Shown piece after piece: positions 6,339 through 62,066 of a DNA stretch of 64,000 nucleotides. Position 1 is the stretch's first letter. Each line of letters starts with the position of its first letter. Origin of the DNA: Balanoglossus misakiensis (Eukaryota > Animalia > Hemichordata); assembly GCA_040954595.2 (NCBI GenBank), contig CM082585.2, positions 3,192,902 through 3,256,901 of the forward strand, in the 5' to 3' direction. Position numbers and translations under genes: made by a program. The notes under the pieces are model-generated. The model ran no database searches and was not told the origin of the DNA. It saw nothing but the letters and a program-made list of their open reading frames with translations.

Positions 6339-7161
6339 TCAGGCAGCATAGAAATTACAGTATGATAACCCCTCACCAAAGCGAGGGATGGAATACAGAC
6401 AAGCGCGGTCGGGAATGGAAGAAGTAACTGGTTTGATTGGAACCCAGGAAAATGGACCAGAGAATGCGTCGTCACATTCCGATTCCTGAAAAGTAATATA
6501 CATGTAATATCATTAATTACGAAAAAGGGAAGATCAGGTTTAATCTCAACAACAGATGAATTGAATCGTGGCGTATTGATTTTCAATGACGCAAACTTTG
6601 CTATGTCGGCTCATGTCATCAGCGGTTCAGTTCAGATTGCGAGATCGCATCGGTAATATTTGAGAACACTGGCAGTAGCGAGAGATTTTCTATGTTCTGA
6701 CAACTTAATGTTGTTATTCTGACAAAATTTCAGAAGGATAATACAATGACGTGCCAGAATGTGGAAAAAAACCCACGTTTCGGCGATCATAACTCAGCTC
6801 TGTCGATGGCGTTCAATGTTTCCAAACGTAGTACAGTTCAATTGAGGGGGAAATGGGGGATCTTATAGATCCGGATGATCATTTGCATATGAGCATGCAA
6901 AATTACCAGAATTATTATTGCCCGGACCTCTTAGAATACAGTGCCAGGTACAAATGCCAAAATAATGGTTCACAGCAGACAAACCTTGCAATGATAAGCG
7001 GTGATTCCGTTGGCATACAGTATCACATTGCATTTTCCACAACTGCTAATCAACTTGCTTCCGTCACCAGGGCCCTGCATTTAATAGAATGGAAAATACT
7101 TTAGACAAGTACCTGATTTGTCAAATTTGTGGAACTGACTAATAATCTTGTAGGGTATTAT

Positions 7162-7209
<48 letters not shown>

Positions 7210-8376
7210 ATTTAACCATTTAAGACGTTCTGAAGCGTCTCAGATCAGATACCGTCTTAAAAAACACGTGTGGACGGTGTAAAGTGGTTTTGAAATGGCT
7301 TAGATTTGAGACGGCTTTGCCGGCCAGACCTGAGTGGGTGAAATGATTAACACCTCTCCGCAACCCATTGTCTATGGGATTGGGTCTCAGCGCCTATACA
7401 TAAACTTTGTGTGTGTGGACATCACGCGACTCAAATGATTGATGCTCTGTGTTTACCATAGGCAAATAGTGTCTCAATTTTTTTCCTGTCTGAACCCGGT
7501 ATAGGTCACCCAGTATTTCCAGTGTCAACAGGTGATTTACACATCTGCATATAGCGTTTGTCAGTTAGTCATAAGTCCGAGAAAAGATATGCGATGGCGT
7601 AATAAATATGAAAGGATGACCATGTGATATTTTACCCACCAGATCAATATCATCGGAAAGGCTCTTGTCTGATATAACAACGGCTGAATAATGACCCTCT
7701 TTCTTGAAATCCAATGCGTATGTAGTCGAACCTCGAATTCTTTCCTGGACACGACCGGCCCTGACGTCATTGACTTTAGCGGACAGTTCTGCGGTACTCT
7801 CCTCTGTTAATTCACAGCCTACGTAAAACACTCCGCCATCTGCGTTCGCATCGCTCTTGCATTTTTGACCGTGAAAGGCTTGACTATTCTCCCCATCCTC
7901 TCCCTTCACCACGGCTCCACTCGCATGAAATACATTGTCTGCATTAACCATGGATCCACTCGCATGAAACGATATCAACACAACTATTGTTGTGGCGGCA
8001 ATTCGGTGAAATGACTGAGGTGATAAAACAGGAATTACTGACTTATGAGATTTTTTCGTCTTATAATATTTAAATGGTTTAATTATCATTATTCACATTA
8101 CTCTGCTCGTTTCACAATTTTATATTAGGCTGTTTATTACCAGTATTTATATATATACCTCTGTCTTCGCATGCTGTCTCTCTCAGCATTTTTATAGTCA
8201 TGATTTGAAAGTGTTTTCCCTTTGGTCGCATTCGCTATGATGACCTCTTGCCATCTGTGTCAAAAAGTACTAAGAATGCAATTATCATGAAATCAAGCGG
8301 GATGCCCAGTTCTGACCCAGCTGAACAAAACACTTACCACTTAGTGCATTTTAGAAGTGCTATATGAACTTACCAT
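6339..8376 (-). CDS. Array gene A1: secreted Cys-rich protein of unknown family, 204 aa, 4 exons
   Basis: Exons 8376-8374 (ATG|gtaagt), 8014-7640, 7074-6985, 6485-6339 (TGA); all GT-AG, phase 0. Protein MSFHRIAATTIVVLISFHASG..DDIDL|GPGDGSKLISSCGKCNVILYANGITAYHCK|ESECDDAFSGPFSWVPIKPV..CLYSIPRFGEGLSYCNFYAA. AATAAA at 6255-6250. Confidence 0.82.
7164..7500. mobile_element. Short interspersed insertion with a (CA)n end in intron 2 of A1
   Basis: Absent from paralogous introns. A reverse-complement copy lies at about 22817-23116. Confidence 0.6.
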
Positions 8377-8457
8377 TGTGTTCGTATTGCAGACGAATGT
8401 AAACATCGACAGCAAGGTTCACCTCAGCTATGTTGAAACTTCTCGTGACTCCACACA

Positions 8458-8560
8458 TTATATATATGCAAATTGTATTTATAAGCACCGAGCTATTTTT
8501 GTCGTAAATTTGTTTTCCTATTTCTGTCTGTAAAACAATACATGTGGTGGCGCCATATTG
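8458..8560 (-). promoter_or_regulatory. Putative core promoter of the array genes (TATA, octamer, YY1/CCAAT-like motif)
   Basis: Minus-strand ATTTGCAT (8473-8466) abuts TATATATAA about 85 nt above the ATG, and CCAATATGGCGCC lies at about 8548-8560. The TATA/octamer arrangement recurs upstream of several copies (about 21220, 37430, 39425, 43840). Confidence 0.5.
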
Positions 8561-10471
8561 GAATATTTGCAAGTAGAACACATTCGTGGTCTTGTGTCTG
8601 TGATTGTACTGAGAACATGAAAACTGAAAGCACTAACGGCTACATGTGCATATATGGGGGCCCCAGACTCCAAAGTCGTTTGGACAATTAGGTAAATGTT
8701 GAGGAAAACTCTTTAATCTCGTTTTCCCATCCCTCTTGAACAAACCCTCAGTATTCCCTTTCAATTACCAACAATTCTTAAAAAACATTACGGAGTAAAC
8801 AATGCCAACACCAGGTAATAGTAGCATAGACATTGCTATTTTCAATTTCTGCAGGTTAATTTGCATAATTGTGCCCAGCATTAGTAGATACCTCATAATT
8901 ATTTTGTATTTAGATAAAATAAATTTATGCAAACAGTGTACACATAATGCTGGTACGTTCAGTACAGTTAAATATCGAAGTTTTTTTTAACTTTATGCCT
9001 TTGTTGTAATTATAGATTGAAATGAAGATACGACATACGAATATTTCTGCAATAGTTACACTTTTTCACCTAAAGAAACCTAAAATTGTTTCATAGTACT
9101 ACACATTTGTGGACTAAGTTACATTATCCAAAAGCCACTTCATGCAGCACATATATATTTCAGCAAATTGTAATACAATTGTAACTTTGACAACATTCGT
9201 TGTGGACAGGACGAATGTAGGCGGCATAAAGATACACCATCTGAATTTCTCAGTGTCGTTCACACCTGGTGGGCTACTGTTTGGTAATTTACCATCTCAG
9301 TTTAAGAGACCCGGCAAACAAATCAACACCAGTCAGTACCAATTTCAAAAAAACATAATAGGACTATAGAAACATCATGAACCCCACCCAGACGGTTCTA
9401 TAATATTGAACGTTGATTCTTACTTTGAAAATCGATCCGTCTAATTTTTTTGTGTCCTGGCTGACTGTTTCTACTAGAGTTTTCTAGTTGATGTTGTCGC
9501 TTCATAAATTTGGTAAAGGGTTAAATTCTGATTAGTCCTGTTCGAAAGACCACGTGATGACACGTACACACTTGTTTGCATCAGATTAATGCTGTCTTCT
9601 TTTATTGGCGTCATTTTCTAATACATTTCTATGAAATGCACTACTAGTCCATGAACTTTAAAGACAAATCTATTCCATCAATCAGGCAGCATAGAAATTA
9701 CAGTATGATAACTCCTCACCAAAGCGAGGGATGGCATACAGGCAGGCGCCGTTGCGGACGGAAGAAGTAACTGGTTTGATCGGATTCCATGAAAAGAGAC
9801 CAGAGAATGCGTCGTCACATTCCGATTCCTGAAAAGTAATATACATGTAATAGCATTAATTACGAAAAAATAAAGATAAGGTTTAATCTCAACAACAAAT
9901 GAATTACATCGAGGTGTATTGATTTTCAAAGACGCAAACTTTGTTATGCAAAGTAGGGCCATGTCGGCTCATGTCATCAGAGGTTTAGCTCAGATCGCGA
10001 GATCGCATCGTAATATTTTGAGAACACTGGCAATAGCGAGAGATTTTCTATGTTCTGAAAACTTAATGTTTTGTTATTCTGACAAAATTTCGGAAGGATA
10101 ATACACTGAAGTGCCAGAATGTTGAAAAATCACCACGTTTCGGCGATCATAACCCAGCCCTGGCGATGGTGTTCGATGTTTACAAACAGAATATAGTAAG
10201 GTTCGATTGAGGGGAAACTTGGGGATCTTATTATTCTGAGTGCTTATTTGCATATGAGCTTACAAAGATGCCAGAATTATTAATGCCCGGACCACTTAGA
10301 ATACAGTGGTACATATGCCATGATAATAATAATAATAGTTTATTCAGATACAATATAGGCCACCGGCCTCTGTGTATACAAACTAGTACGTCACCTGAAA
10401 TCTCCGGAGGACGCAAAAATGTAAAATAATTGTCGAATTACATCATGGCCATGAAAAAGGAAAGAAACGAA

Positions 10472-13400
10472 TCACACTTCAGATCGTTTTTTCGTGGCAA
10501 AAAATACAAATTTTGACAGATTACGCAAGATACTTGGGTTACATGATTGCATGAGGAGGTAAAATTTATCGTAGGTTGGCATAAAATAGTAATATCTAGG
10601 AATATACTTGACTCGTAAATCCGCATAGAATGGACACACAATACAAAAGTGAAATTCATCCTCTATCTCATTACCATTACAATAGATACATGTTCTATCT
10701 TCACGATTATTGCGTAATCGCCTGTCAGCTTCGATACGTAAAGCGTGCGCTGATATTCTAAATCTACAAAGTGCCTCTCGAAAGTGCGACTTTTCAATCA
10801 TGTTGAAATACAATTCTCGTCGAAAAATATGTTTGAACTTTCTGTAAGAGTCTAGTTTAGGAAACAAACGTAGACTAGTATGCCAGTTTTGAACATCTAG
10901 ATCGTGACAACGCTGTTTGAATAAGGAAATAAAATTGACATTGTTACCAACCCCCTGATTAACCCATGCCTCACCCATTCCATAGGAAAAAAGTAACATT
11001 TTCACATCGTGAGCCCAACATGTTTTGTTCTTTTCCGCTTCTCCATACTGGAATACATAACATTTGTATGGTAAACGATTAACTGGCATTGCCAGTAGAC
11101 GCAACCAGTAATTGATTATTCTTATAAGCCTATTAGATCGTAAGGGGTACCGCCCAAGTTCACCTTTCACAGCGAGAGTTGGTGCATTTTTGTACAACTT
11201 CAAAATAAAACGACAAAATTTGTTGTGAACAATTTCAATTTGGTCTCCTCTGTGGAATCCCCAAATTTCACTACCATACAAAAGAATTGGGAGGATTTTA
11301 CAATCGAAGATTTTAAAGGCCAAGTTCACATCAATATCCCCAAACCTTGCAAGAGATTGCTTAATACAAAACAATGCCATGGATGCTTTGCTGGCTAAAT
11401 GCCGTTGTGCATGATTCCATAACCCAAAATTAGCAAGAACAACCCCAAGATAGTTATAGTGGGGGACGACTTCGAGTTTTTTCCCATCTAGAAACCACTT
11501 TTCATATGAGCGTAGCCTTCCCCCATGTCTAAAAACGACAATCTTTGATTTAGAGGTATTAACCTTGAGTTTCCATTTTGTTGCATACATTGATAAATTA
11601 TTAAGGAGACGCTGCAAACCAATAGCAGTGGTGCTAAAGAGTGACAGGTCGTCTGCAAATAATAAATAGAACAGTTTGATATTTGCGATATGAACACCGG
11701 CAAAGTCATGATAAAGAGCTTCCCCTATATCATTTACAAATAGGGTGAACAAAAGAGGTGACAAAATACTTCCTTGCTGCACTCCAAGTTGACATCTAAA
11801 GAAATCAGTGATACCAACAGGTGTATGAATACAAGCTTTAACATTATCATACATTGAACGTAGGACGGTGAATAGTTTACCCTGCAACCCTATTTTTGCC
11901 AGTTTATAAAATAACATGTAATGGTTGATTCGGTCAAAGGCTTTCTCAAAGTCTATGAATGCACAGTAAAGTCTCCCACTTAGAGACATATAACGATTAA
12001 TGATGGTATTTAAAATAAAAATGTTATCAATAGTAGAATAGTGTCTTCTAAACCCAGCCTGTTCTTCAACAAGGGGATAGTAGAGTTCGACCCATTTGAG
12101 TAATCTACAATAAAGAATGTCACTATAAATCTTACAGATAGTCGGCAGTAAAGTTATACCTCTATAATTGTCAACACTATCTCTACAACCTTTTTTATAC
12201 AGTGGTACAATTAGACCTTCAACCCATTGGTCGGGAAACAAACCCGTAATTAAAATTTTGTTGTACAACTGTAGTAAAAATTGTCTGAAAATAAGCGGTG
12301 AATGTTTTATAATTTCAGGTGAAATGCCATCAATACCTGGAGCCTTGTCTACTTTCAAGCGAGAAATCGCACTATCAAGTTCGTCCATTGTAATTTCATG
12401 GTCAAGAATTTCTATACCAGGGTCAAGCTCTGGTGAAGTATCCAGGTTTTCCAAAAACAACTGTACTCCATCATAAAAGGAAGAATCCCCATGGGTGTTA
12501 CCCCGTGGTTCCGACTCTGAAAACAGTTTCGAAAAGAAAGCATACCATTCGTCTAACTTAATATTCGTAGACGGGAAGCTAGTTTTGGTTTTGAAAAGTG
12601 CCCAAAAACTTTTGGAATTAGGATATGTAGCAGCAATTGCAAGTTTATCCTTTTCATTCTCTACAAAATTACGTTTCTTATCTTTTAAAAGAGATTGATA
12701 AGACTTGCGTGAGGCAATATAATTATTAAGACTATCTTGATTCTTAGTGTTACGATAGTGTCTCAGTGCTTTAAGAACATGTCTTTTAGTATTGTTACAA
12801 TCCTTATCAAACCAAATCTTCTTTCTCTGACCAGTGTGATTAGAAAATTTGTTTTTCACTTGCATACAATCAGTGGAGTTTTCCAACATTTTAACAAGCA
12901 CGGCTGCAGCAGCCGAAATATTCTCTACATTAAGGTAAACATGAAATTCTTCTGAAAGTACGCCAAAGTTTTCACCGATCCAAAACTGATCAAAACTATG
13001 ACTAAAATCATTATTCCAAAAGCGTCTGGTGGGAGGTTCCATTACACCACTATTAATGTCACCACCATGCATAGATCTGCCTTTCAGAGTGAACCTGATT
13101 GGCAAATGATCGGACTCAGGTCTCTCAAGCACATTAAAGTCACTAAATACATCAAAATTGTGGAAAAAGGAGAGAACATAGTCGATAACGCTTGCACCAG
13201 AATGTTTGATACACGTAAAATGACCAATTCCTTCATCTCTAAAAAGTCTACCATTAACTATTCTGAGGCCGGTATTGACGCATAATTCTAAAAGTAGATG
13301 GCCATACGAATTTACTATACAATCATTGGAAAATCTTGGTGGTGGTGATGGTAATTGATCACATGACAAGTACGTATCATTTACGAAAACATCATCTCTA

Positions 13401-13831
13401 TTGTCGTCTTGAACAAAGTCTGGCTTTATTCCCGTTCTGGCGTTGAAGTCTCCACAGACAAAAAATTTACGGTCAGGATATTTGGCCATATTTTTAACCA
13501 ACTCATCCTCTAGAACGTGAAAACTGGACTCGTTGGAATACGTGCTTGAGTTTTGGGGCGAAAAGTAAACAATAGCGAAACAGAACTTCAGTTCGCCAGA
13601 TGTGAAAAGAAACCATACAATGTCGTCTGTTACATCACTGCATGACGTGGCGGTATTTTGACAACTGTGGGATCGATAAAATATGCTAATGCCTCCAGAT
13701 GGACGGCCCAGATGTTTACGCTTGGGACGGGTTTGGTGAAAATTCTCATAACCATCCAATTTAAATACACTATCAGGAGAATTCCAAGTTTCCGTCAGTA
13801 AAATAATGTCAAACGTTTTAATAAATGCCAT
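10472..13831 (-). CDS. LINE ORF2: APE endonuclease, reverse transcriptase and C-terminal Cys/His motif
   Basis: LTETW, GDFNAR, IDY, SDH (APE); KAPGIDG, NYRGITL, FIDFEKAFD, GVQQGSILSP, LFADD, YLG (RT); CIYC..EDEFHF...C. The frame stays open upstream to 13966 and includes WNVNG. Confidence 0.95.
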   Translation of the reverse strand: MAFIKTFDIILLTETWNSPDSVFKLDGYENFHQTRPKRKHLGRPSGGISIFYRSHSCQNTATSCSDVTDDIVWFLFTSGELKFCFAIVYFSPQNSSTYSNESSFHVLEDELVKNMAKYPDRKFFVCGDFNARTGIKPDFVQDDNRDDVFVNDTYLSCDQLPSPPPRFSNDCIVNSYGHLLLELCVNTGLRIVNGRLFRDEGIGHFTCIKHSGASVIDYVLSFFHNFDVFSDFNVLERPESDHLPIRFTLKGRSMHGGDINSGVMEPPTRRFWNNDFSHSFDQFWIGENFGVLSEEFHVYLNVENISAAAAVLVKMLENSTDCMQVKNKFSNHTGQRKKIWFDKDCNNTKRHVLKALRHYRNTKNQDSLNNYIASRKSYQSLLKDKKRNFVENEKDKLAIAATYPNSKSFWALFKTKTSFPSTNIKLDEWYAFFSKLFSESEPRGNTHGDSSFYDGVQLFLENLDTSPELDPGIEILDHEITMDELDSAISRLKVDKAPGIDGISPEIIKHSPLIFRQFLLQLYNKILITGLFPDQWVEGLIVPLYKKGCRDSVDNYRGITLLPTICKIYSDILYCRLLKWVELYYPLVEEQAGFRRHYSTIDNIFILNTIINRYMSLSGRLYCAFIDFEKAFDRINHYMLFYKLAKIGLQGKLFTVLRSMYDNVKACIHTPVGITDFFRCQLGVQQGSILSPLLFTLFVNDIGEALYHDFAGVHIANIKLFYLLFADDLSLFSTTAIGLQRLLNNLSMYATKWKLKVNTSKSKIVVFRHGGRLRSYEKWFLDGKKLEVVPHYNYLGVVLANFGLWNHAQRHLASKASMALFCIKQSLARFGDIDVNLAFKIFDCKILPILLYGSEIWGFHRGDQIEIVHNKFCRFILKLYKNAPTLAVKGELGRYPLRSNRLIRIINYWLRLLAMPVNRLPYKCYVFQYGEAEKNKTCWAHDVKMLLFSYGMGEAWVNQGVGNNVNFISLFKQRCHDLDVQNWHTSLRLFPKLDSYRKFKHIFRRELYFNMIEKSHFREALCRFRISAHALRIEADRRLRNNREDRTCIYCNGNEIEDEFHFCIVCPFYADLRVKYIPRYYYFMPTYDKFYLLMQSCNPSILRNLSKFVFFATKKRSEV

Positions 13832-13966
13832 GAAATCAGGATTTCCCCATTTGTTTTTTAACCCGTTTACGTTCCACAGAACAAATGATACATCCGTAGA
13901 AAGATTGACAGGACAACCAGATGTCGTTACCCTAGAATTACCAAATACAAGGCCTCGGCCTAAATC

Positions 13967-15019
13967 CTATCTTTTAGCAATTGACCTTATGTCTTTTTTA
14001 GCACTATCGTATACAAATACTTCGTTTTCTATGACAAGTTTGTTATACCGTAGTGTGGCTCTTTTACCCTCCTCCTTGGCTTTTGCGAGGTAGTGTCCCA
14101 ATTTTCTCCTGGTTTCGCGAACCAGAGGTGGAAAGTCTTCGGTTATCCTGTAGTTTGAACCCTGTAGTTTCTCGCGTGCAGCTTGAAGTGTTTGTTCCCT
14201 GTGCTTGTACTTCGTAAATTTAACTAGAACTGGTTGTGGTCGCGATCTTGTTCGTAGTCTATGCGCGCGATCAATTTCGATGTCGTTGTTGCTCAAGTCA
14301 AGTTCATCTGAAATAATTCCACGTACTTTGCGTTCACAGTCCGCCCAACTTTCTTCGTCGCTATCTTGGGAAATTCCATGAATCAGTAAATTGTTTCTGC
14401 GTAGTTGTCCTTCTTGCCTGTCTTGTTCTTGTTCCGTTCTCTGGAGTCTATTACGGAGTTCAATGTTTTCCGCTTCCAGGTCCGCTATTCGAGAATTTGC
14501 TTCTTGCAACTGCTTCTCAACATTATTCAACCCTTCTTTAATTTCCTTCGAGTCAGTATCCATTTTTGCTTCCATCTTACTGAATCTATCTTCAATGGAT
14601 AACTGAAGTGTGGTTATTTTGGAATCGATAAACGATTTCAGTTCATCAATCAAGCTGCCGTCGCCCTTGGCAGGAATGGTGTCACTGGCTTGTCCGGGTG
14701 CTTCGGCGGCGGCGATGGCGGAGCCGGCTGTAGAATTCGAAGGTGCCTTGTTTGCAGTTGTCTTATCATACATTGTTTCTGTCAATTTCGACTGCCTTGT
14801 ATTATATCCTGGTTCTTGTCGTTCTTTCGAGGACTTTGGGCCCGGATTAGTTTCGATATCGCCACACGTCAGCATGCATAATAATAAGGTGACACGTATA
14901 GCAAGACTCACGTGTAACTTGTCCGTTGGCAGGCCAGCTCGTTCTCCTAACCATTTGCCTTGTGTGGGTTGTAGAAAACAGCCAATTTTTTGACGCCACT
15001 GGTTCACAGACACGCCCAT
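13967..15019 (-). CDS. LINE ORF1: N-terminal 2A-like peptide, coiled coil and L1-ORF1p-like RNA-binding domain
   Basis: LLLCMLTCGDIETNPGP at aa 45-61; heptad region; RRNNLLIHGI, IDRAHRL, PQPVLVKF, RITEDFP. Confidence 0.9.
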   Translation of the reverse strand: MGVSVNQWRQKIGCFLQPTQGKWLGERAGLPTDKLHVSLAIRVTLLLCMLTCGDIETNPGPKSSKERQEPGYNTRQSKLTETMYDKTTANKAPSNSTAGSAIAAAEAPGQASDTIPAKGDGSLIDELKSFIDSKITTLQLSIEDRFSKMEAKMDTDSKEIKEGLNNVEKQLQEANSRIADLEAENIELRNRLQRTEQEQDRQEGQLRRNNLLIHGISQDSDEESWADCERKVRGIISDELDLSNNDIEIDRAHRLRTRSRPQPVLVKFTKYKHREQTLQAAREKLQGSNYRITEDFPPLVRETRRKLGHYLAKAKEEGKRATLRYNKLVIENEVFVYDSAKKDIRSIAKR

Positions 15020-16448
15020 AACGTATAGCCACGTCTTTAGGTAGACGTTTAGGTGCTATAAGGAAGGTTTTTGGCTACCAAAAACTGCAAGGGTCCAAGT
15101 TTATGGTGAAATTTTTACAGAGCGTTGTTGCGTGTGCTTCTCACCGAACGGCTTGAAGTGCGCCCTCCCCATGCCATGATAATTGTTAACAGCAGACAAA
15201 CCTTGCAATGATAAGCGGTAATTCCGTTGGCATATTGTGTCAAATCACATTTCCCACAACTGGTAATCAACTTGCTTCCGTCACCAGGGCCCTGTATTTA
15301 GTATAATGAAAAATACGCCTGACAAGTACCTGATTTGTCAAATTTGTGGAACTGTCTATATAATCGTGTGGTGTATAAAAATATTACTTGTCTTACAGAT
15401 TAGTTTCCTTTTAATACGAGACATATGTTGTGGTAGTGTTGAGATGTGAACCTATGGGGGTGTCATGGCATATCTCGCTTTTACATAAGTTATACAGAAA
15501 CATATAGACAGGCAAAAACTTAAGTCTTCATGCATGAATACCAGATTATCTGATAATCACCCAGTATTTCCAGAATCAACAGGTGATTTACACACCTGCA
15601 GATAGCTTTTGTTCGTTAGGCATAAGGCCGGGAAAAGAAATGCGATGCGAAATAATAACGAAAGGATGACTAGGTCTATCATTTTACGCACCATATCGAT
15701 ATCTTCGGAGAGGCGTCTGTCAAATATCCCAACACTTGAAAAACTGGTATCGGTCTTAAAGCACGCGGCGTACGTACTCGAATTTCGACCCCTTTCCTGC
15801 ACAAGACCAGCCCTGACGTTATTAACTTTGGCGAGCCGCTCTGAAGTATACTTCTCTGTTAATGCACATTCTGCGTAATAGATTCCGTCGTCGGCGTTCA
15901 CATCAACATTGCACTTTTCACCGTGAATAGCTGAACTTTTCTCCCCATCCTCTCCCTTCACCATGGCTCCACTCGCATGAAATCCATTGTCTGCATTAAC
16001 CATGGATCCACTCGCATGAAAAGATATCAACACAACAATTGTTGTGGCGGCAATTCGGTGAAATGACTGAGGTGATAAAACAGGAATTACTGACTTATGA
16101 GATTTTGTCGTCTTATAATATTTCAATGGTTTCATTATTATTAATCACATTATTCTGCTCGTTTCACATTTTTTTTTGTTAGACTTGCCATTGTTTATTA
16201 CCAGTATATATACCTCTTTGCTCACATCATGCCCATGATTAGTAAATACCTCATAATTATTTTGTGATTTGTCGCCTTATGAATTTACCAAAGGGTTTTA
16301 ATCTGATATCTCCGGGTCGAAAATACCACGTGATGAAAAAGTACACAATTGTTTACACAAGACAACTTCTTGTCTTATTTTTATTGACGTAACGTACTAA
16401 TGTATTCCCATGAAACTCAGTTTGAATTTAAAAGACAAATCAATTTCA

Positions 16449-18189
16449 TCAGTTAAGCAGGATTGCAGTAAAATTGCAGTAAAATAACCCCTCCCCAAAG
16501 TGAGGGAAGGCATACAAACAAGCGCCGTCGGGGATGGAGAAAGAAATTGGTTTGATCGGAACCCAGGAAAAAGGACCCGTGAATGCGTCGTGACATTCCG
16601 CTTGCTGAAAAGGAATATAATATCATTAGGAAAATGTTACATCAGGTTTAATCTCAAGAATAGATGAATTGATTGTGATTCTACACTATAGGAGATCCAC
16701 AACAGTTATGAAATAGTAAACCTCAATTATCAGCACATGTTTCCAGAACTCTAGAACTAGTAGACAAATTTAGTTCATATCGTCGAGCGGCCTGCAAAAC
16801 TGTTTAAGCAGGATATAGCATTGTGTAGCCCTGCGCACTGGTTTGTGTATGTAACGCCGGGAACACACAGACCTCTATGCAGGGCTAAACACTAATGTGA
16901 TGTCGCATATTTCAGCTATTTATATCACGACTGCATTCTATTTTTCCACTTCTGTTTGTTTAAACTACGACAACAGGGAAAAGCTAGAATTTCTATCCTA
17001 CCATTGTTATAAGGCAACACGCATTTTTGATTTTATATTGTTTTATTTTATATACATGTATTTATATCTTGTATTCATATCAAAGACAAAGCAGATTATA
17101 ATAATGGTTAACAGCAGACAAACCTTGCAATGATAAGCGGTAATTCCGTTGGCATACAGTATCACATCGCAGTGCGAACAACTGGAAATCAACTTGTTCC
17201 CGTCACCAGGACCCTGCATTTAATAGAATGGAAAATAAGTTAGACACGTACATTATATGTTTCAATTTTGTGAAACTTTTTATATAATCGTGTATTATTA
17301 AAAAAACATTACTTGATAATTCTGACAGATTAGATATCAATAATAGAAATTTATGCTATGTTGCGGTGTTGAGATATGAACCTTGGCGGGTTGTCGTGAT
17401 TAATCTCGCTTATACATAAGTCATACAGAAACAAAAAAAACGTAACCTAAGTCTGCAGTTATTAAGTCTACATAATTAGCTAATCACCTAGTACTTTCAG
17501 ACAGTCAATATGGGATTTACACATCTAAGGATAGCTTTTCATTAGTCGTAGGGACAAAAAATAAATTGATTTCGTAATCAAAATAAATGATGGATGGCTG
17601 TGGAAGAATTTACTCACCAGATCGATATCTCCGGAAAGGCGTCCGTCTAATAATATTCCAACAGCTGAAACACTAGTATCGTTCTTAATATCAACAGCGT
17701 ATACAAGAGAACTTCGACTTCTTTCCTGGACAAGACCAGCCCTGACGTCACTGACTTTGGCGAACAGCTCTAAGGGATATTCCTCTGTTAATTCACAGTC
17801 TGAGTAATTCAATCCGTCATCTGCGTTCACATCAATCTTGCATTTTTCGCCGTAGAAATATCGACTGGTCTCCCCATCCTCTCCCTTCATCACGGCTCCA
17901 CTCGCATGAAATCCATTGTCTGCATTAACCATGGATCCACTGGCATGAAACGATATCAACACTTGTTGCGGCGGAAAATCGTTGAAATGTCTCAGATGGT
18001 AAAAAACAGACAATGAGTAATATGCCGTGGTCACCTTATTAAAATGAGTGCATTTTCACAAAAACATGAACCTTGTAGCAAGACGACATATATCAGAATA
18101 TCAAACAGGGTGGTCTGTTCTGACCCAGCCTGCCCAAACTTAAAAAAAATGTGTGTACATGTAAGTGCAAATACCAGTCAACTTACCAT
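16449..18189 (-). pseudogene. Array gene A3, frameshifted in the signal-peptide region
   Basis: Exons 18189-18187, 17990-17618, 17213-17124, 16604-16449. A 5-nt deletion near 17962 shifts the frame, the exon 2 acceptor is GAG rather than CAG, and the C-terminus is altered (YCNFTAILLN). Confidence 0.72.
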
Positions 18190-23850: not shown

Positions 23851-23947
23851 TGTGTGCGTATTACATACGAATCCTAACATCGACAGCAAGGTTCACCTCA
23901 GCTATGTTGACACTTCTTCACTCGCCACTTTATGTGCATTGTATATA

Positions 23948-41875: not shown

Positions 41876-42256
41876 AAATAAACTTTACTGGCATCTCGAA
41901 TTAACTGGTCTCCATAGGAAATGCCCGAGTGTATGCTGTTGCATGAGGTTTAGACCACATGTTGGCTATTGCAATGAGATGACTATTGTGGACATAAAAG
42001 TTCGCTACGCATAATTTTTTAGTTCTGTACGATAGTCAGAAAGCCACCATGTGCGCAAAGACGATTATAACTGTGGTAACATATATCTTGGCCGGCACGA
42101 ATGTAGACGGCGCAAAGAATTAAAGATACACCACTGTTAACACAAGACATATACTTTTCGTATTCATCTTTTATTGGCATAAACTTGTAAAGCTTTCCCA
42201 TGGCACCATGCAGTTTAAAGACAAATCCATCTCATCAAGATAATAATTCACCAAAA

Positions 42257-44309: not shown

Positions 44310-44345
44310 TTTGAATGAATGAATGAATCTTTATTCAACCAGATA

Positions 44346-44384
<39 letters not shown>

Positions 44385-44409
44385 ACAAATAAATAAATAA
44401 ATAAACAAA

Positions 44410-44452
<43 letters not shown>

Positions 44453-48785: not shown

Positions 48786-48817
<32 letters not shown>
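45953..48817 (+). mobile_element. L2-clade LINE ORF2 (APE plus RT), frameshifted, nested in the CR1-like element
   Basis: YRPP, GDFNLH, GHTLDL, SDH; [60 protein letters not shown]; (TGAT)n tail at about 48789-48817. Confidence 0.92.
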
Positions 48818-48818
<1 letters not shown>

Positions 48819-49798
48819 CCTACATCAAGGGGACAACCCTTTTTTGGACAATGACGTAACTTTGGCAAGTTTTAATGGGTTTAAGGGTTTTATTCTGATA
48901 ACTCCGTGTCGAAAATACCACGTGATGAAAAAGTACACAATTGTTTACACGAGACAACTTCTTGTCTTATTTTTATTGACAGATTACAGAAATTATGAGT
49001 TTTTAGCGTCTTTCCCTTTTCAAAATAGTTGTTCACATTATTCTGCTCGTTTTACATACATCAGTGTTAACGTCATTACTCTCGTAGCAAGGCGACAATT
49101 ATCATAATCTCAAACAATATGGCCTGTTGTGGCAAAACCTGATTGAACATTAACATTTTTGTACATTGATATAAGTGCAAATACTGACCAGCTTACCAAT
49201 GTGCGCATGTCAGGCACTGATGTAAACATTGACAGCAAGGTTCGCGACAGCTATGTGGAAACGTATTGAATCGTGACTTAATAAAAACAAGATTATATTT
49301 ATAAGGACCGAGATAATTTATTCAAGAATTCATTTTTCCATAAGTGTTTGTTATCCCTGGTTAGTATGTACATCATGATTGTTTTGCATTCCCATAAAGG
49401 AATTGTATACAAAAAAGTCCATGTATTCACAAATTGCTGGTACGTATACTGAAATTAAATATACATTGGCTGGGTATTTTGGTTAAACGGTGGTTCTAAC
49501 AGACATGTCTTGGCCCTTAGAAGCATGGTGCTTCTTACGGTCAATTTTGGATCTTAGAAGCACGGGTTATAGCCCATGAAAATTATAAAATTTTACAAAT
49601 TCCCGACTTTCTGAATTTTGGTGATTTTGTCATTTTTGGACATTTTGCATGGGTTATATAGCTCATGAAAATTGTCAAAAATTGACAAATTCCCGAATTT
49701 CTGAAGTTGCACCAATCAACACCAGTCAGTACCAATTTCAAGAAAGCGACAAAACTACAATTCCTTTTTAGACATTATTTAATCCATTCCTCTAAAAG

Positions 49799-51372
49799 TC
49801 AATACAGTTCGATAATAATTATTTCCGAGAATACCTCGTCACATTCCGTTTCCTGAAAAGGGATGGGAAAGGGTTGATCGTTAATTATTTACAGATGGGA
49901 AAGTCTACAGTGAGACAGGTGGATGACATTCGGTGGCGTTTTTTTAAGGGCTGAATTGATTGGTAGTCTATCTTCTATACACAACGGAAATTTCCCATAT
50001 CTACTCAGACATGTTTCCCAGACTCTAGTATGTTGAAATATTCCACCGGCCTGTGCGTGCTATTTTTCAATTCTGGTTTTTTTTTTTTTTTTTTTTTGGC
50101 CTGCGAAAACAACACAGAAAAAACTAGAAATATGGTTTCTATCCTGTCCAGATTTTCAAGCAACATGCATTTTGATATTGTATTATATATTTATATCAAA
50201 GACAAAGCGCGTTATAATAATGGTTCACAATACAAACCTTGCAATGATATGCGGTAATTCCGTTGGCAACCAGTGTCTCATTGCATTTCCCACAACTGGT
50301 AATCAACTTGCTTCCGTCACCAGGGCCCTGTATTTAATAGAATGGGAAAGTTCCTGATATTTATCAAAGTTTTGAAACTTTCTATGTAATCGTTTATTAA
50401 AAACTAGTAAGAGCATTACTTGATAATACTGACAGATTAGTTACTTTTAACAAAAATATTTGGTTGCGGTGTTGAGATATGAACCTTTGAGGGGATCTCA
50501 TGATAGACTTCAATTCTACATAAACTAAATAATTTCAGACAGTCAATATAGGATTTATAATACACGTCGGCAGACAGCTTTTTAGTCCCCAAACGGCGAA
50601 AGGATGGTAAGACTTTACTCACCAGGACGATATTATCGGAAAGGTGCTTGTCGGATATTAGAACACTTGAAAAACTAGTATCGGTCGTAAAACCCGTAGC
50701 GTGTGTAATTGAACCTCGACTTCGTTCCTGCACAAGACCAGCCCTGACGTCACTGACTTTGGTGAACAGCTCTGAAGGATACTCCTCTGTTAATTCACAG
50801 TCAAAGTAATTCAATCCGTCATCTGCGCTCACATCAACCTTGCATTTTAAACTGTTCTCCCCATCCTCTCCCTTCATCACAGCTCCACTCGCATGAAATC
50901 CATTCTCTGCATTAACCATGGATCCACCCACATGAAACGATATCAATACAACTATTGTTGCGGCGAAAAATCGTTGAAATGTCTGAGAAAGAAAAAAAAC
51001 CAGATGAACCTGAAATTATAACTTTATGTCGTTTTTTTCTTATTAAACTTGTTGCCTTATTTGCACTATTCTGTTATTACAATGAACTAGTAAAATGCAT
51101 ATTGTTTAAATTAAACAGAGCAGACCACAAATTACGGTACTTCACTGTGTAATGGAAGACACCTTTTCACAATTTCCTACTCAGTCACGATTAGAAATGG
51201 TTGTCACTTTGGTCGAATTCGCTGTTTCCCTAGTGGCTTCTTGCCTACTGCAGTCTTTGTCAAAAAGTACCAATACGACAATGATCAGGAAATCAAACAC
51301 GATGCCCTGTTCTGGCCAAGCTTGACTGGACACTTATTCCATGATTCTATAAGTGTTGTATGAACTTACCAT
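49799..51372 (-). pseudogene. Array gene A12, exon 4 truncated by a deletion
   Basis: Exons 51372-51370, 50982-50623 and 50327-50238 match A13. Exon 4 (49852-49799) reads ETECDEVFSEIIIIELY* and loses the last two Cys. Confidence 0.72.
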
Positions 51373-54300
51373 TGTGTGCATGTTACGTACGAATACAAGC
51401 ATCGACAGCAATGTTTGAACGTTTTTGACTCGTCACCTTATAGATAAACAGTGTGCAAATTGTATCCGTAAGCACCAAGATATTTTGGTCATGATTTTTA
51501 TTTCTGTCTGTAAAAAAAATGTGGCGGCGCCATATTGGAATATGTGCAAGTAAAACACATTTCGTATCTTTTGTGTCAGCGATTGTCGTTCGTACACGTA
51601 AACTGGACATATTGGGGCCCTAAATCCTTGGGAAATTACGTGAGGCGCGGAAAGTTTATACAAACTTCGGTCACATTTCTCCATTCATATAACTCTATAT
51701 GCTCATGCCCGGCATTAGTATGTGCATCATGATTGCATTTGCATTCTATAAAGGAATTGTATACAAAATGCTGTTACGGGTACTAAAATTAAATATGCAA
51801 TGGTTTGGTATTTTTGTTAAAACTTTATTACTTCTTTTGCGTTTGTATTAATAGATTGTAGTGAAGATACCGCATTGAATTTCGAATATTTCTGCAATAG
51901 AAAATAACACGTGATGGAATTAGAGTATACACTTGTTTACACGAGACAACAATAGGCTATGTACCTTTCTTCTTTTATTGGCATAATTTTCCCCGTGAAC
52001 CTCAGTATAGTTTCGATTACTATACGAACTTTACAGAAAAATCCATGTCATCCAGAAAACCAACCAAAATTAGGGAATATAGAATTTGCAGTAGAAGATC
52101 ACTTCACCAAAGTGAGAGATAGCATCCTGCAGACAAACGCCGCCAGGCAAGGAAGAAGTAACTGGTTTGATCGGAACCCAGGAAAAACAATAAAACATAA
52201 TTATAACTGTGACAACATTTGTTGTGGACAGGACGAATGTAGGCAGCATGAAGATACACCATCTGAATTTGTCAGTGTCCTATACACCTGGCGGGCTATT
52301 GTATGGTAATTCACCATTTCAGTTTGAGAGATTCGGCAGATCTGACTATTGCGGGTTCTACATCTGCTGTATGTCTGCCAGAACGCCAATCAACACCAAT
52401 CAGTACCAATTTCAAGAAAACGACACTACTATACAATTCCTTTATAGACATTATTTAATCCATTCCTCTAAAACGCAATACAGTTTGATTATAATTATTC
52501 CACGAACTTTACAGAAAAATCCATGTCCTCAAGATAATTCACCAATTTTAGGGAAGATAGAAATCGCAGTAAAAGAACTCCTCACCAAAGCGAGGGATGG
52601 AATACAGACAAGCGCCGTCAGGGACGGAAGAAGTAACTTGTTTGAATGGAACCCATGAAAAGGGCCCCGAGAATACCTCGTCACATTCCGTTTCCTGAAA
52701 AGGGATGGGAAAGGGTTGATCGTTAATTATTTACAGATGGGAAAGTCTACAGTGAGACAGGTGGATGACATTCGGTGGCGTTTTTTTAAGGGCTGAATTG
52801 ATTGGTAGTCTATCTTCTATACACAACGGAAATTTCCCATATCTACTCAGACATGTTTCCCAGACTCTAGTATGTTGAAATATTCCACCGGCCTGTGCGT
52901 GCTATTTTTCAATTCTGGTTTTTGTTTTTTGTTTTTTTTTGGCCTGCGAAAACAACACAGAAAAAACTAGAAATATGGTTTCTATCCTGTCCAGATTTTC
53001 AAGCAACATGCATTTTGATATTGTATTATATATTTATATCAAAGACAAAGCGCGTTATAATAATGGTTCACAATACAAACCTTGCAATGATATGCGGTAA
53101 TTCCGTTGGCAACCAGTGTCTCATTGCATTTCCCACAACTGGTAATCAACTTGCTTCCGTCACCAGGGCCCTGTATTTAATAGAATGGGAAAGTTCCTGA
53201 TATTTATCAAAGTTTTGAAACTTTCTATGTAATCGTTTATTAAAAACTAGTAAGAGCATTACTTGATAATACTGACAGATTAGTTACTTTTAACAAAAAT
53301 ATTTGGTTGCGGTGTTGAGATATGAACCTTTGAGGGGATCTCATGATAGACTTCAATTCTACATAAACTAAATAATTTCAGACAGTCAATATAGGATTTA
53401 TAATACACGTCGGCAGACAGCTTTTTAGTCCCCAAACGGCGAAAGGATGGTAAGACTTTACTCACCAGGACGATATTATCGGAAAGGTGCTTGTCGGATA
53501 TTAGAACACTTGAAAAACTAGTATCGGTCGTAAAACCCGTAGCGTGTGTAATTGAACCTCGACTTCGTTCCTGCACAAGACCAGCCCTGACGTCACTGAC
53601 TTTGGTGAACAGCTCTGAAGGATACTCCTCTGTTAATTCACAGTCAAAGTAATTCAATCCGTCATCTGCGCTCACATCAACCTTGCATTTTAAACTGTTC
53701 TCCCCATCCTCTCCCTTCATCACAGCTCCACTCGCATGAAATCCATTCTCTGCATTAACCATGGATCCACCCACATGAAACGATATCAATACAACTATTG
53801 TTGCGGCGAAAAATCGTTGAAATGTCTGAGAAAGAAAAAAAACCAGATGAACCTGAAATTATAACTTTATGTCGTTTTTTTCTTATTAAACTTGTTGCCT
53901 TATTTGCACTATTCTGTTATTACAATGAACTAGTAAAATGCATATTGTTTAAATTAAACAGAGCAGACCACAAATTACGGTACTTCACTGTGTAATGGAA
54001 GACACCTTTTCACAATTTCCTACTCAGTCACGATTAGAAATGGTTGTCACTTTGGTCGAATTCGCTGTTTCCCTAGTGGCTTCTTGCCTACTGCAGTCTT
54101 TGTCAAAAAGTACCAATACGACAATGATCAGGAAATCAAACACGATGCCCTGTTCTGGCCAAGCTTGACTGGACACTTATTCCATGATTCTATAAGTGTT
54201 GTATGAACTTACCATTGTGTGCATGTTACGTACGAATACAAGCATCGACAGCAATGTTTGAACGTTTTTGACTCGTCACCTTATAGATAAACAGTGTGCA

Positions 54301-55510
54301 AATTGTATCCGTAAGCACCAAGATATTTTGGTCATGATTTTTATTTCTGTCTGTAAAAAAAATGTGGCGGCGCCATATTGGAATATGTGCAAGTAAAACA
54401 CATTTCGTATCTTTTGTGTCAGCGATTGTCGTTCGTACACGTAAACTGGACATATTGGGGCCCTAAATCCTTGGGAAATTACGTGAGGCGCGGAAAGTTT
54501 ATACAAACTTCGGTCACATTTCTCCATTCATATAACTCTATATGCTCATGCCCGGCATTAGTATGTGCATCATGATTGCATTTGCATTCTATAAAGGAAT
54601 TGTATACAAAATGCTGTTACGGGTACTAAAATTAAATATGCAATGGTTTGGTATTTTTGTTAAAACTTTATTACTTCTTTTGCGTTTGTATTAATAGATT
54701 GTAGTGAAGATACCGCATTGAATTTCGAATATTTCTGCAATAGAAAATAACACGTGATGGAATTAGAGTATACACTTGTTTACACGAGACAACAATAGGC
54801 TATGTACCTTTCTTCTTTTATTGGCATAATTTTCCCCGTGAACCTCAGTATAGTTTCGATTACTATACGAACTTTACAGAAAAATCCATGTCATCCAGAA
54901 AACCAACCAAAATTAGGGAATATAGAATTTGCAGTAGAAGATCACTTCACCAAAGTGAGAGATAGCATCCTGCAGACAAACGCCGCCAGGCAAGGAAGAA
55001 GTAACTGGTTTGATCGGAACCCAGGAAAAACAATAAAACATAATTATAACTGTGACAACATTTGTTGTGGACAGGACGAATGTAGGCAGCATGAAGATAC
55101 ACCATCTGAATTTGTCAGTGTCCTATACACCTGGCGGGCTATTGTATGGTAATTCACCATTTCAGTTTGAGAGATTCGGCAGATCTGACTATTGCGGGTT
55201 CTACATCTGCTGTATGTCTGCCAGAACGCCAATCAACACCAATCAGTACCAATTTCAAGAAAACGACACTACTATACAATTCCTTTATAGACATTATTTA
55301 ATCCATTCCTCTAAAACGCAATACAGTTTGATTATAATTATTCCACGAACTTTACAGAAAAATCCATGTCCTCAAGATAATTCACCAATTTTAGGGAAGA
55401 TAGAAATCGCAGTAAAAGAACTCCTCACCAAAGCGAGGGATGGAATACAGACAAGCGCCGTCAGGGACGGAAGAAGTAACTGGTTTGAATGGAACCCAGG
55501 AAAAGGGCCC
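49825..55510. repeat. Near-identical tandem duplication with a 2843-bp period
   Basis: Identical ORF translations offset by 2843 (50437/53280, 51383/54226, 51959/54802); a few differences in a T-run and in exon 4. Confidence 0.9.
52548..54215 (-). CDS. Array gene A13, 199 aa
   Basis: Exons 54215-54213, 53825-53466, 53170-53081, 52694-52548; open frame. Confidence 0.8.
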
Positions 55511-57455
55511 GGAGAATACATCGTCACATTCAGTTTCCTGAAAAGGGATGGGAAAGGGTTGATCGTTAATTATTTACAGATGGGAAAGTCTACAGTGAGA
55601 CAGGTGTATGACATTCGGTGGCGTTTTAATTTTTTTAAAGAGCTGAATTGATTGGTAGTATATCTTCTATACACAACGAAAATTTTCCATATCTACTCAG
55701 ACATGTTTCCCCAGACTCTAGAACTTAACCGTACGTATAAAACTGTGCGTGCTTTTTTCAATTCTGTTTGTTTTGGCCTCCGAAAACAACACTGAAAAGC
55801 TAGAATAATGATTTCTATCCTGTCCTGATTTTTAGGCAACATGCATTATGATGTTGTATTACATATTGACATCAAAGACAAAGCGCATTATAATGATGGT
55901 TCACAATACACACCTTGCAATGATAAGCGGTGATTCCGTTGGCATACAGTGTCCCATCGCATATCCCACAACTGGAAATCAACTTGCTTCCGTCACCAGG
56001 GCCCTGTATTTAATAGAATGGAAAATACGTTAGACAAGTAACTGATATTTATCAAAGTTTTAAAACTTTCTATGTAATCGTTTATTATATAATGCATCAA
56101 TTGGTAATGCTGACAGATTGATTACTTTTAACAGAAATATTTGGTGGTGGTGTTAAGATATGGGCATTAGAGAGGGGTTTCTGCTGGGTTCACATCTAGG
56201 CCCACAGCTAGGTAAAACTAATCCCGATGATTGTGACAAGATAAGCTAATCATTTGTCCTCGTTCACATTGTGTTTGGCACATTCCTGGCCGACGTCGTC
56301 TCGCCAACCTTTGACCTCATAAAGCAGAACCATGTTGGTCCTCTTATGGTTGTTTATAGATGTTCACCATTGTCAAACGATAGACTACACTGTTATGTCA
56401 ATTGTAAAAATGTGTCAACTGGAACCAGACAAAACGTGTCCACACACACCAGGCTGGGACCAGAGTCGGACCAGAGTCGACCACAAAGCACCCCATTCAA
56501 TTCAACTGGGACCAAAATTGTCCGGACAAGGGTCGGCCAGACCCGTTCACACCTGTTGCCTAGCCTTTTTTGAGTGAACGGCCTATTCATGATAAACTTT
56601 ATATCTACATAAACTAAATATTTTCAGACAATCAATATTAGATTTATAATACCCGTCGGCAGACAGGTTTTAGTCCCCAAGCGGAGACAGAAAGGATATA
56701 AGACTTAACTCACCAGGTCGATAGTATCGGAAGGGTGCTTGTCGGATATTAGAACACTTGAAAAACTAGTATCGGTCGTAAAACCCGTAGCGTAAATATT
56801 CGAACTTCGACTTCGTTCCTGGACAAGACCGGTCTTGACGTCGTTTACCTTGCCGAACAGCTCTGACGGATACTCCTCTGTTAATTCGCAGTCCACGTAA
56901 TTAAATCCGTCATCTGCGTTCACATGAACATCGCATTTTGAACTTTTCTCCCCATCCTCTCCCTTCATCACGGCTCCACTCGCATGAAATCCATTCTCTG
57001 CATCAACCATGGATCCACTCACATGAAACGATATCAACACAACTATTGTTGCGGCGGCAAATCGTGGAAATGTCTGAGATAGAACATAAAAGATTATGAA
57101 CTGAAATTATGAGTTTATATCATGTTTATCTTATTAAAATTGTTGCATCATTTCCACTATTCTGCTTTGACAATGTTCTGGTAAAATGTGTATGTTTAAA
57201 TTAAACAGAGACCACAAAGGTACTTTACTGGGTAATGGAAAAAAAACTTTTTTCACAATTCCTACTCAGTCACGATTAGAAATGGTTGTCCCTTTGGTCG
57301 TATTCACTGTATGCCTAGTGGCTTCCTGCCTTATGCCAATTGTGTCAAAAAGTACCAATACGACAATGATCAAAAAATCAAACACGATGCCATGTTCTGG
57401 CCAAGCTTGACTGAACACTTACCATGATTCTATAAGTGCTGTATGAACTTACCAT
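55391..57455 (-). CDS. Array gene A14, 199 aa (close to A7)
   Basis: Exons 57455-57453, 57073-56714, 56003-55914, 55537-55391; open frame. Confidence 0.8.
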
Positions 57456-58149
57456 TCTGTGCATATTACGTACGAAGGCAAGCATCGACAGCAAGGTTTG
57501 AACGTTTTCGACTTGTAGATAATCATCGTGCAAATGTGTATCCGTAAGCACCAATTTATTTTTGTCATGGTTTTTATTTCTGTCTGTAAAAAATTAAATG
57601 TGGCGGCGCCATATTGGAATATGTGCAAGTAGAACACATTTCGTATCTTTTGTGTCAGCGATTGTCGTTCGAACACGTAAACTAACAAAACTGGACAGAT
57701 TGGGGCCCTAGATCCATGGACAATTACGCGTGGAGCAGAAAATTTATACAAACTTCGCTCACATTTCTCCATTCCTGTAACTCTATATGCTCGTGCCCGG
57801 CATTAGTATGTACATCATGATTGCATTTGCATTCTATAAAGGAATTGTATACAAAATGCTGTTACGGGTACTAAAATTAAATATGCAATGGCTGGGTATT
57901 TTTGTTAAAACTTTATTACTACGTTTGCGTTTGTATTAATAGATTGAAATGAAGATCTGCAATAGATACACTTTCTCAGTTAAAGGGGCAAAGTCGCCCT
58001 CTATTCGCCAATTTTCTTTGTTTGGTAGGAAAATGGTCTGTGTCGAATGACTAATTTAAAATGGGACATTAGCTGTATGGTATGATATGCTGTATGCTGG
58101 GCATTTCTTCATACTTAAAGGATTTGAACAAAAAACTGCAGTAGATACA

Positions 58150-58308
58150 CAGTGAAACCTGTCATTACGGACACCTCTCTTATCAAGAAACCTCTCTATT
58201 CAGGACAACGTTTTCAAGACAAAAGTCACAGTTTGTATAAAATATTACCTGTCTATTAAGGACACATTTTCCAGTCCCAGAGGTGGCCTTAATAGGCAAG
58301 TTTCACTG
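58150..58308. mobile_element. Tc1/mariner-pogo-type MITE
   Basis: TIRs cagtgaaacctgtc / ggcaagtttcactg followed by TA. The empty site gtagatacacaaaac is seen at about 32749. Confidence 0.7.
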
Positions 58309-58788
58309 TACACAAAACAGTGACTGTACTGCGAACATGGGAACCGAAAGCACAGACGGCTGGATATGTAAATTTAGGGCCTTGCCCATGGACTCAGAAG
58401 TCGTCTGAACAATTACTTATAGTATGGAAAATGTTACGTTCTCTCTGGTTCACCATATAAAATGTTGTTTACGAATGTCTAGTTGGGATATTTTTCACTG
58501 GAGTGTTTGTCGCCCGCTTTTTACATTTAACACACACTCGTCTATTTTGAGCTATGCTCATTTTCTCTTAGCTGACTCATACGTGGTAAAAACGAAAAAA
58601 AACGTAAAAACCAGGTAAATGCATTATTCTCTCATGTTTTTGGCATATAAGCTGTAGTGATGTACAGGTAGCCACATGACAAATACATAAGAAATGCTGC
58701 AATTTCCGCCGTTTGAATCTCAGTATAGTTTGATTACTCCACGAACTGTACAGAAAAAAATCCCTGTCATCCAGAAAATTGACCACAA

Positions 58789-58902
58789 TTAGGGAATTCA
58801 GAAATTGCAGTTAAAGATCACTTTACCAAAGTGATAGATAGCATCCTGCAGACCTGGGAACCTAGAAAAGGGACACGAGAAAGCGTCGTGACATTCCGTG
58901 TC
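58789..58902 (-). pseudogene. Decayed orphan exon 4 marking the end of the array
   Basis: Acceptor cttttcag retained; internal deletion and stops relative to exon 4 of A8. Confidence 0.65.

Positions 58903-62035: not shown

Positions 62036-62066
<31 letters not shown>

Follow-up and report, generated by a model that had tools for sequence, protein, structure and literature searches.

Introduction

Several described systems resemble, each in part, a family of genes that we report here as a tandem array on the minus strand of a 64-kb stretch of the genome of the acorn worm Balanoglossus misakiensis (assembly GCA_040954595.2, contig CM082585.2, positions 3,192,902 to 3,256,901; the whole stretch of 64,000 nt is called the window hereafter). 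The SpTransformer (Sp185/333) genes of the purple sea urchin have two exons and mosaic elements, and encode intrinsically disordered proteins with Gly-rich, RGD and His-rich regions (PMC5491942). According to the same source, these genes are small, tightly clustered and highly diverse, and lie in an unstable region, in all of which they resemble the acorn-worm array, also ambulacrarian. However, the acorn-worm genes have four exons, collinear paralogs, eight invariant cysteines and a predicted folded alpha/beta body, and they diversify by point substitution. We did not assign them to the SpTransformer family, whose structural features they lack (four exons, collinear paralogs and eight invariant cysteines being found instead), and no homology is implied. 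By analogy, SpTransformer may nevertheless be the closest model for their working mode, as variable anti-microbial binders.

Ependymin-related proteins (EPDRs) are described as proteins of 213 aa (median) with a signal peptide, encoded in lineage-specific tandem clusters and released into sea water by starfish, with three universal cysteines at alignment positions 23, 94 and 186 (PMC6280359). A table in that source gives only 4 EPDRs for Saccoglossus. The acorn-worm proteins share with them a predicted signal peptide (by hydropathy), a similar length (196-214 aa), few conserved cysteines, a predicted beta-rich character and tandem expansion in a marine invertebrate, but they have 8 cysteines against 4-6 in EPDRs, at other distances, the two families being compared by spacing only.

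Hemichordates also carry tandem clusters of genes for VWD/Cys-rich mucus glycoproteins (PMC4729200). These are again tandem genes for secreted, cysteine-containing proteins in acorn worms, and the gene adjacent to our array is VWDE-like. The array proteins are, however, much smaller, with no VWD or EGF domain and no mucin tract in Pfam scans of single exons. Membership in the VWD/EGF group (VWDE-like or mucin-type) was likewise rejected, no exon giving such a Pfam match.

A tandem array of four-exon genes

With the exons of its last copy as queries, the window was searched in translation and at the nucleotide level. Exon 2, exon 3 and exon 4 were each recovered fourteen times, all on the minus strand and within 6339-57073, and exon 1 was recovered upstream of 13 of the 14 copies. 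We number the copies from c01 (57 kb) to c14 (6 kb), and residues as in c14 counted from the upstream ATG. A preliminary description of this DNA had announced a fourteen-fold, four-exon array with an exon 3 of constant length, and both points hold: exon 3 measures 90 nt in 14/14 copies. The end of the array at 58902 does not, as that position belongs to a lone exon-4 remnant (58798-58902, minus strand), which keeps its acceptor, has an internal deletion and has no detectable exon 2 or 3 upstream; there is no fifteenth gene.

The introns of all copies are in phase 0. The donors of exons 2 and 3 are GT in 28/28 cases and the acceptors of exons 3 and 4 are CAG in 28/28, while exon-2 acceptors are CAG in 13/14, c12 having GAG; the splice sites, first given as uniformly canonical, are thus so with this single departure. 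The same copy is the only one whose exon 2 (373 nt) is not a multiple of 3 in length. As noted earlier for several copies, the genes are flanked by expression signals: AATAAA or ATTAAA lies 63-93 nt past the stop in 12 of the 14, and 9 of the 13 exon-1 copies have a TATA-type hexamer, by our own pattern, no more than 200 nt away.

After splicing, 11 copies are open and 3 are broken (c03, c12 and c13, the last graded as probably broken). Eleven codons of exon 1 are open in all 13 exon-1 copies, and 12 of these carry an ATG in frame, ten codons ahead of the last one. Because of this upstream start, the likely products measure 196-214 aa; the count of eleven open proteins given before is right, and their proposed length of 186-204 aa is probably too short. 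The choice of start matters in two copies, c05 being open from the upstream ATG only and c08 from downstream ATGs only. Protein identity among the 11 open copies is 57-90%.

From the upstream end of the array, c01 (55391-57485, 209 aa) has its exon 1 coding part at 57485-57453, exon 2 at 57073-56714, exon 3 at 56003-55914 and exon 4 at 55537-55391. In the same order, c02 (52548-54245, 209 aa) occupies 54245-54213, 53825-53466, 53170-53081 and 52694-52548. The most divergent copy is c04 (42257-43788, 214 aa; 43788-43756, 43440-43066, 42836-42747 and 42403-42257), with 57-58% identity to its furthest paralogs. It is followed by c05 (40126-41446, 207 aa; 41446-41414, 41228-40875, 40723-40634 and 40272-40126), whose last exon-1 codon is TTG, c06 (37922-39371, 197 aa; 39371-39339, 39017-38685, 38282-38193 and 38059-37922) and c07 (33936-36334, 202 aa; 36334-36302, 36105-35770, 34290-34201 and 34085-33936). 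In c08 (30005-32097; exon 2 31680-31321, exon 3 30615-30526, exon 4 30151-30005) the upstream start codon is ATT, which leaves in-frame ATGs at 32076 and 32067. The last open copies are c09 (26417-27941, 214 aa; 27941-27909, 27665-27291, 26997-26908 and 26563-26417), c10 (22198-23880, 212 aa; 23880-23848, 23649-23284, 22678-22589 and 22347-22198), c11 (19262-21167, 196 aa; 21167-21135, 20926-20606, 20316-20227 and 19408-19262) and c14 (6339-8406, 214 aa; 8406-8374, 8014-7640, 7074-6985 and 6485-6339). Among the broken copies, the exon 4 match of c03 (49827-51402) ends after about 9 codons (49852-49827); c12 (16449-18219) has an out-of-frame exon 2 (17990-17618) behind its non-canonical acceptor, with exons 3 (17213-17124) and 4 (16604-16449) open; and c13 (9682-16066) has no exon 1, its exons 2-4 (16066-15692, 15291-15202 and 9828-9682) being open, with a long interspersed nuclear element (LINE) in intron 3.

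The coding signal is far above chance, and the array is real. When neutral evolution was simulated 2000 times along the nucleotide tree of these 11 copies, no run left every frame without a stop (maximum 7 frames) and none preserved all eight cysteine columns (maximum 4), the latter result being unaffected by the choice of open copies. The p-distance is 0.15-0.19 in exons against 0.26-0.51 in the non-coding pieces next to them, which may in part lack homology over their full length. Gap lengths are divisible by 3 in 9/9 cases in the exons of the 11 open copies against 11/57 in the non-coding flanks. This last test is weak by itself because the 11 copies were selected as open and because the collapse of a 39-nt tandem repeat accounts for two of the exon gaps (39 nt); one more reflects the shorter end of c06. 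The earlier argument, made for the eleven open copies, that exon-2 length differences betray selection on coding stands in direction, with lengths in multiples of 3 in 13/14 copies (all but c12), but it carries less weight than it seemed to. The repeat itself is a 39-nt tandem duplication in exon 2 (e.g. 7972-7895, minus strand) that spans the predicted signal-peptide cleavage region. It collapsed separately in c06, c07 and c11, each of which kept the hydrophobic core and a small-residue site.

Positive selection on a mosaic family

We applied site models to the 11 open sequences. The ratio of nonsynonymous to synonymous rates (omega) averages 0.83, a weak constraint overall that falls short of significance (p=0.057 for omega below 1). 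By region it is 1.17 in the signal, 1.29 in the linker, 0.83 in the exon-2 core, 0.80 in exon 3 and 0.59 in exon 4. Model M2a is preferred to M1a with twice the log-likelihood difference (2dlnL) at 35.6, placing 39% of sites at omega 0.22, 50% as neutral and 11% at 3.3.

The paralogs are mosaic (pairwise homoplasy index, p=0.001), and two of five segments reject the whole-gene tree (approximately unbiased test, p=0.003). We therefore repeated the selection test with five segment-specific trees, which gave a 2dlnL of 34.5, and of 33.5 for M8 against M8a; with the 164 columns away from gaps it was 27.1. The maximum reached in 34 null simulations on mosaic trees was 12.6. From these sequence models we conclude that a few positions are under positive selection after controls for gene conversion.

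In the single-tree fit, sites 61, 76, 122, 124, 126 and 153 have a posterior of at least 0.95; with segment trees, that of 122 drops to 0.88 and that of 153 to 0.93. Columns 122, 124 and 126 hold 7, 7 and 6 residue types among the 11 copies, while column 125 is an invariant Ile and column 123 is Val, Ile or Phe. In two AlphaFold2 models of exon 2, both of low confidence, the stretch with 122-126 lies in a strand. This alternation would be that of a strand with one variable face (122/124/126) and one core face (V123 and I125).

Protein anatomy

All 11 open copies have the hydrophobic N-terminus and the eight conserved cysteines first noted for them. Their single N-terminal hydrophobic stretch has a Kyte-Doolittle 11-residue maximum of 2.2-2.7, with values of at most 1.5 after residue 40, and hydropathy gives no membrane anchor in any of the 11; the signal peptide was assessed in the same way. 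The proteins are thus predicted to be secreted and disulfide-bonded. Their mature parts have an isoelectric point (pI) of 4.2-4.9 and a mass of 18-21 kDa, with no low-complexity tract and no conserved dibasic processing site. Ser/Thr-rich or repetitive tracts are also absent, and 3/11 open copies have no N-glycosylation sequon.

The invariant cysteines are 63, 78, 148, 151, 165, 170, 195 and 209. The structure prediction and fold search called for by the preliminary description covered exon 2: the two AlphaFold2 models have a mean predicted local distance difference test score (pLDDT) of 40 and 52, and fold searches with these low-confidence models matched nothing meaningful. Both runs gave the same order of elements, namely a Cys63-Cys78 hairpin, a helix and two more strands. 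The predicted anatomy is a signal peptide and a loosely constrained linker followed, in exon 2, by a Cys63-Cys78 beta-hairpin, a helix and two strands. Further downstream, 13 residues separate Cys151 from Cys165 and again Cys195 from Cys209, the middle one usually being Gly, a layout suggestive of two further disulfide-closed hairpins; profile comparison did not support homology between the two. The spacing would also fit a Cys148-Cys170 link.

Two extra cysteines, 58 and 84, symmetrically flank the first hairpin. Both are present in 4/14 copies and both absent in 10/14 (Fisher p=0.001 for the coupling), and the pair occurs in either part of the tree as divided at its best-supported split. Such joint presence and absence points to a real, optional Cys58-Cys84 disulfide and to an oxidising compartment.

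Duplication, remnants and turnover

Between the genes lie at least 13 single-exon pieces, of which 5 derive from exon 4, 3 from exon 1, 3 from exon 2 and 2 from exon 3, all on the minus strand. Besides the lone remnant upstream of c01, four exon-4 pieces within 25931-55029 (starting at 55029, 52186, 29644 and 26049) are truncated at the 5' end and have no acceptor. Partial exon-2 pieces (41876-41757, 32913-32869 and 28755-28719) and partial exon-3 pieces (22798-22766 and 20436-20404) are found within 20404-41876. Three extra copies of exon 1 with its promoter lie within 33112-49229, with their last codon at 49199, 37349 and 33114; the second and third of these might be used as alternative first exons by c07 and c08.

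The units of c02 and c03 (49827-55510) differ by 1 mismatch in 1930 nt, so that the duplication would be very recent, unless it is an artefact of assembly or haplotypes. With open paralogs of varied age (57-90% identity), three broken copies, at least 13 remnants and one near-identical duplicate, the birth-and-death mode proposed for the family is well borne out; the count of copies covers the 64-kb window.

Searches for relatives

Queries to public databases were single exons, and two large protein collections were queried with exons other than exon 3. At this scope, a word search with the exon-2 alignment retained 0/5669 candidates at E 0.01 (lengths 58-219) and one with the exon-4 alignment 0/1130 at E 1 (lengths 87-2000). 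A HMMER search of 1.84 billion representatives with the exon-2 profile returned 0 at E 0.001. In the ESM Atlas exon 2 had no usable match and the best value for exon 4 was 0.80; Pfam gave only sub-threshold zinc-ribbon and similar rows, and the best E against PDB sequences was 0.13. In viral contigs 0/12 and 0/33 pattern matches were confirmed; metagenome contigs gave 0/118, prokaryote genomes 0/69, and Rfam 0 matches. A set of 64 metagenome loci sharing a 17-nt word of exon 3 was put down to chance (best tblastn E 0.066, best profile E 1). Literature searches by term found no description of such a family, though an unnamed one would escape them.

These empty searches agree with the first impression that no recognised family is involved, and on sequence grounds the protein family is apparently undescribed so far. 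The further claim that it is lineage-specific is narrower than it sounds: no relative was detected and, with single exons as queries and a family evolving near omega 1, this is a statement about detection. The collection used for the word search includes Ptychodera flava proteins, so a close annotated homologue in that acorn worm is unlikely; a diverged or unannotated homologue may exist. Given queries by single exon and predicted folds of low confidence, the proteins could be a divergent version of a known fold. Orphan arrays of secreted cysteine-rich proteins are familiar in marine invertebrate genomes, so that the kind of locus is known and the protein family apparently new. Genes with small exons, of which only exon 2 here is a long open reading frame (ORF), slip past ORF-level scans and database searches.

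A proposed variable binding protein and its alternatives

We favour, with a probability of 0.45, the view that the array encodes soluble binders of variable specificity whose targets, in mucus or body fluid, are microbes or foreign ligands of other kinds. The gene models, turnover, mosaicism and positive selection are its observed basis; ligand, tissue and a role in defence are taken by analogy. As a tandem birth-and-death family whose products, of about 19-20 kDa, are predicted to be secreted, acidic and disulfide-stapled, the array would renew its repertoire by unequal crossing-over and gene conversion. Its paralogs diversify at a small set of sites, probably where the proteins bind a changing partner such as microbes, and residues 122, 124 and 126, as an exposed strand face, would together with 61, 76, 112, 150 and 153 vary the binding surface. 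The earlier list of candidate functions (immune, toxin, mucus or adhesive, gamete) is thereby narrowed towards a variable binding protein without being settled: the acidic pI, the absence of low-complexity tracts and the positive selection favour such a binder over either an antimicrobial of the cationic type or a structural protein of mucus or adhesive. If the defence role is true, hemichordates, the sister group of echinoderms, would gain a candidate diversified recognition or effector family on a scaffold of their own, and the fast sites name the residues of interest for binding.

Several observations weigh against this interpretation. Secreted paralogs under positive selection would also be expected of pheromone carriers, toxins and inhibitors. 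The average omega of 0.83 and the seemingly unconstrained signal peptide (1.17) and linker (1.29) mean that redundant copies may owe much of their divergence to drift. The fastest codons differ at several bases, and multi-base changes and short conversion tracts could inflate site models beyond what the five-segment controls absorb. The structural models are poor and cover exon 2, and the Cys58/Cys84 coupling is non-independent across copies, since one converted tract could carry both residues. Finally, classical immune induction is unsupported: matches to kB-, ISRE- and STAT-type motifs numbered 0, 0 and 0 in the 420 nt upstream of 16 exon-1 copies, where 2.6, 1.8 and 0.4 were expected at the window rate, these expected counts being low.

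A stronger form of the same interpretation is doubtful. It would make the array an acorn-worm-specific, diversified system of soluble recognition, whose hairpin fold, stapled by disulfides and so far undescribed, would bear a hypervariable face on a beta-sheet and, optionally, a fifth disulfide. Such a system would be a hemichordate counterpart, evolved on an unrelated scaffold, to SpTransformer and to the VCBP proteins of amphioxus.

Among the alternatives, the one that survives best, although we consider it unlikely, is that the proteins carry small ligands or act as water-borne, pheromone-like signals in the mode of the crown-of-thorns EPDRs, possibly as a divergent, C-terminally shortened EPDR offshoot whose variable strand face lines a pocket. 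Size class and signal peptide agree, and EPDRs are likewise tandem-expanded and released into sea water (PMC6280359). The variable positions swap small and hydrophobic residues, as pocket linings do. Yet the spacing of the three EPDR cysteines is unmatched in any register of the eight: none gives the final interval of 92 columns, the distance to the last cysteine being 61 residues from Cys148 and 39 from Cys170. Nor did Pfam Ependymin (PF00811) match at E up to 5 in 12 exon-2, 13 exon-3 and 13 exon-4 sequences scanned singly, or any solved EPDR appear in PDB sequence searches with single exons. By eye, exons 3-4 recall the middle of EPDRs, a likeness with no tool support, and we did not assign the family to the EPDRs.

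Less probable again is secretion into the mucus coat as toxins or deterrents for defence, or as inhibitors of proteases or other foreign enzymes. In genomes, families of toxins and inhibitors usually show up as tandem, positively selected genes for small, disulfide-rich secreted proteins, a description that also suits the array; the acidic linker after the signal peptide could be a propeptide. However, the mature proteins are acidic with no conserved dibasic site at which one would be processed, their fast sites fall on predicted strands rather than on one protruding loop, and single exons matched no toxin or inhibitor family in Pfam or PDB.

We also find it improbable that a need for dosage amplified the gene of an abundant structural or mucus secretory protein, whose copies then drift under relaxed constraint, with the selection signal an artefact of the models. 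The overall omega and the TATA-type promoters would suit such a gene, as would a VWD-domain neighbour, given the hemichordate mucus clusters described in PMC4729200. The selection signal, though, holds with partitioned trees, with gap-near columns removed and against the 34 mosaic null simulations; the proteins have neither Ser/Thr-rich nor repetitive tracts, and not all have a sequon; and the full-length family profile did not match the 7 VWDE and tenascin proteins fetched for the neighbouring gene (best E 0.24 within that set).

The least probable explanation, that these are gamete or self/non-self recognition proteins (egg-jelly, sperm or seminal), gains from the fact that positive selection without detectable homologues, here in a related annotated proteome, fits reproductive proteins, but the diversification was measured among paralogs of one genome rather than among species or alleles, and the proteins have no membrane anchor.

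Neighbouring gene, promoters and mobile elements

The upstream neighbour of the array, outside the family, is a VWDE-like gene with an exon at 63406-63786 (minus strand). Of 143 candidates, 7 passed for this exon: four Ptychodera flava proteins, identical at 63-65% of positions (E 6e-50 to 2e-47), then three shark tenascins with 44% identity over a third of the query (4e-12). By this one gene, the source is likely an enteropneust hemichordate other than P. flava. The region 62290-64000 (minus strand) holds the 3' part of this gene, which continues, by eye, with a cysteine-rich exon and a transmembrane segment (about 62417-62300). Its P. flava homologues comprise at least 4 paralogs.

Most exon-1 copies of the array share a conserved promoter block about 100-130 nt upstream of the first ATG (e.g. 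8580-8545, minus strand). It carries a YY1-like word, followed by two TATA-like boxes.

The element in intron 3 of c13 is a non-LTR (long terminal repeat) retrotransposon of 4.8 kb (10315-15183), on the same strand as the gene and flanked by a 13-bp target-site duplication (15183-15171 and 10327-10315). It is apparently intact: its ORF2, for endonuclease and reverse transcriptase, is open at 13966-10472 (1164 aa stop to stop), and its ORF1 has a 2A-like motif at 14860. Elements of this type bearing 2A have been described (PMC3708506). A degraded relative lies at about 4400-5720 (minus strand), with a 2A-like motif at 5644 and 66% identity to 13557-13893. Other LINE-type fragments, recognised by eye from translations, occur on both strands at 44660-48792, 23962-25017 and 60827-62437, the largest of them following the orphan exon 1 at 49199. 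At 3888-4378 (minus strand), two short overlapping frames resemble a gag fragment of an LTR element, Pfam giving no match for 3891-4322. Intron 2 of c07 contains three tandem copies of a 239-nt unit (34382-35172), which has an inverted relative near the start of the window (646-955).

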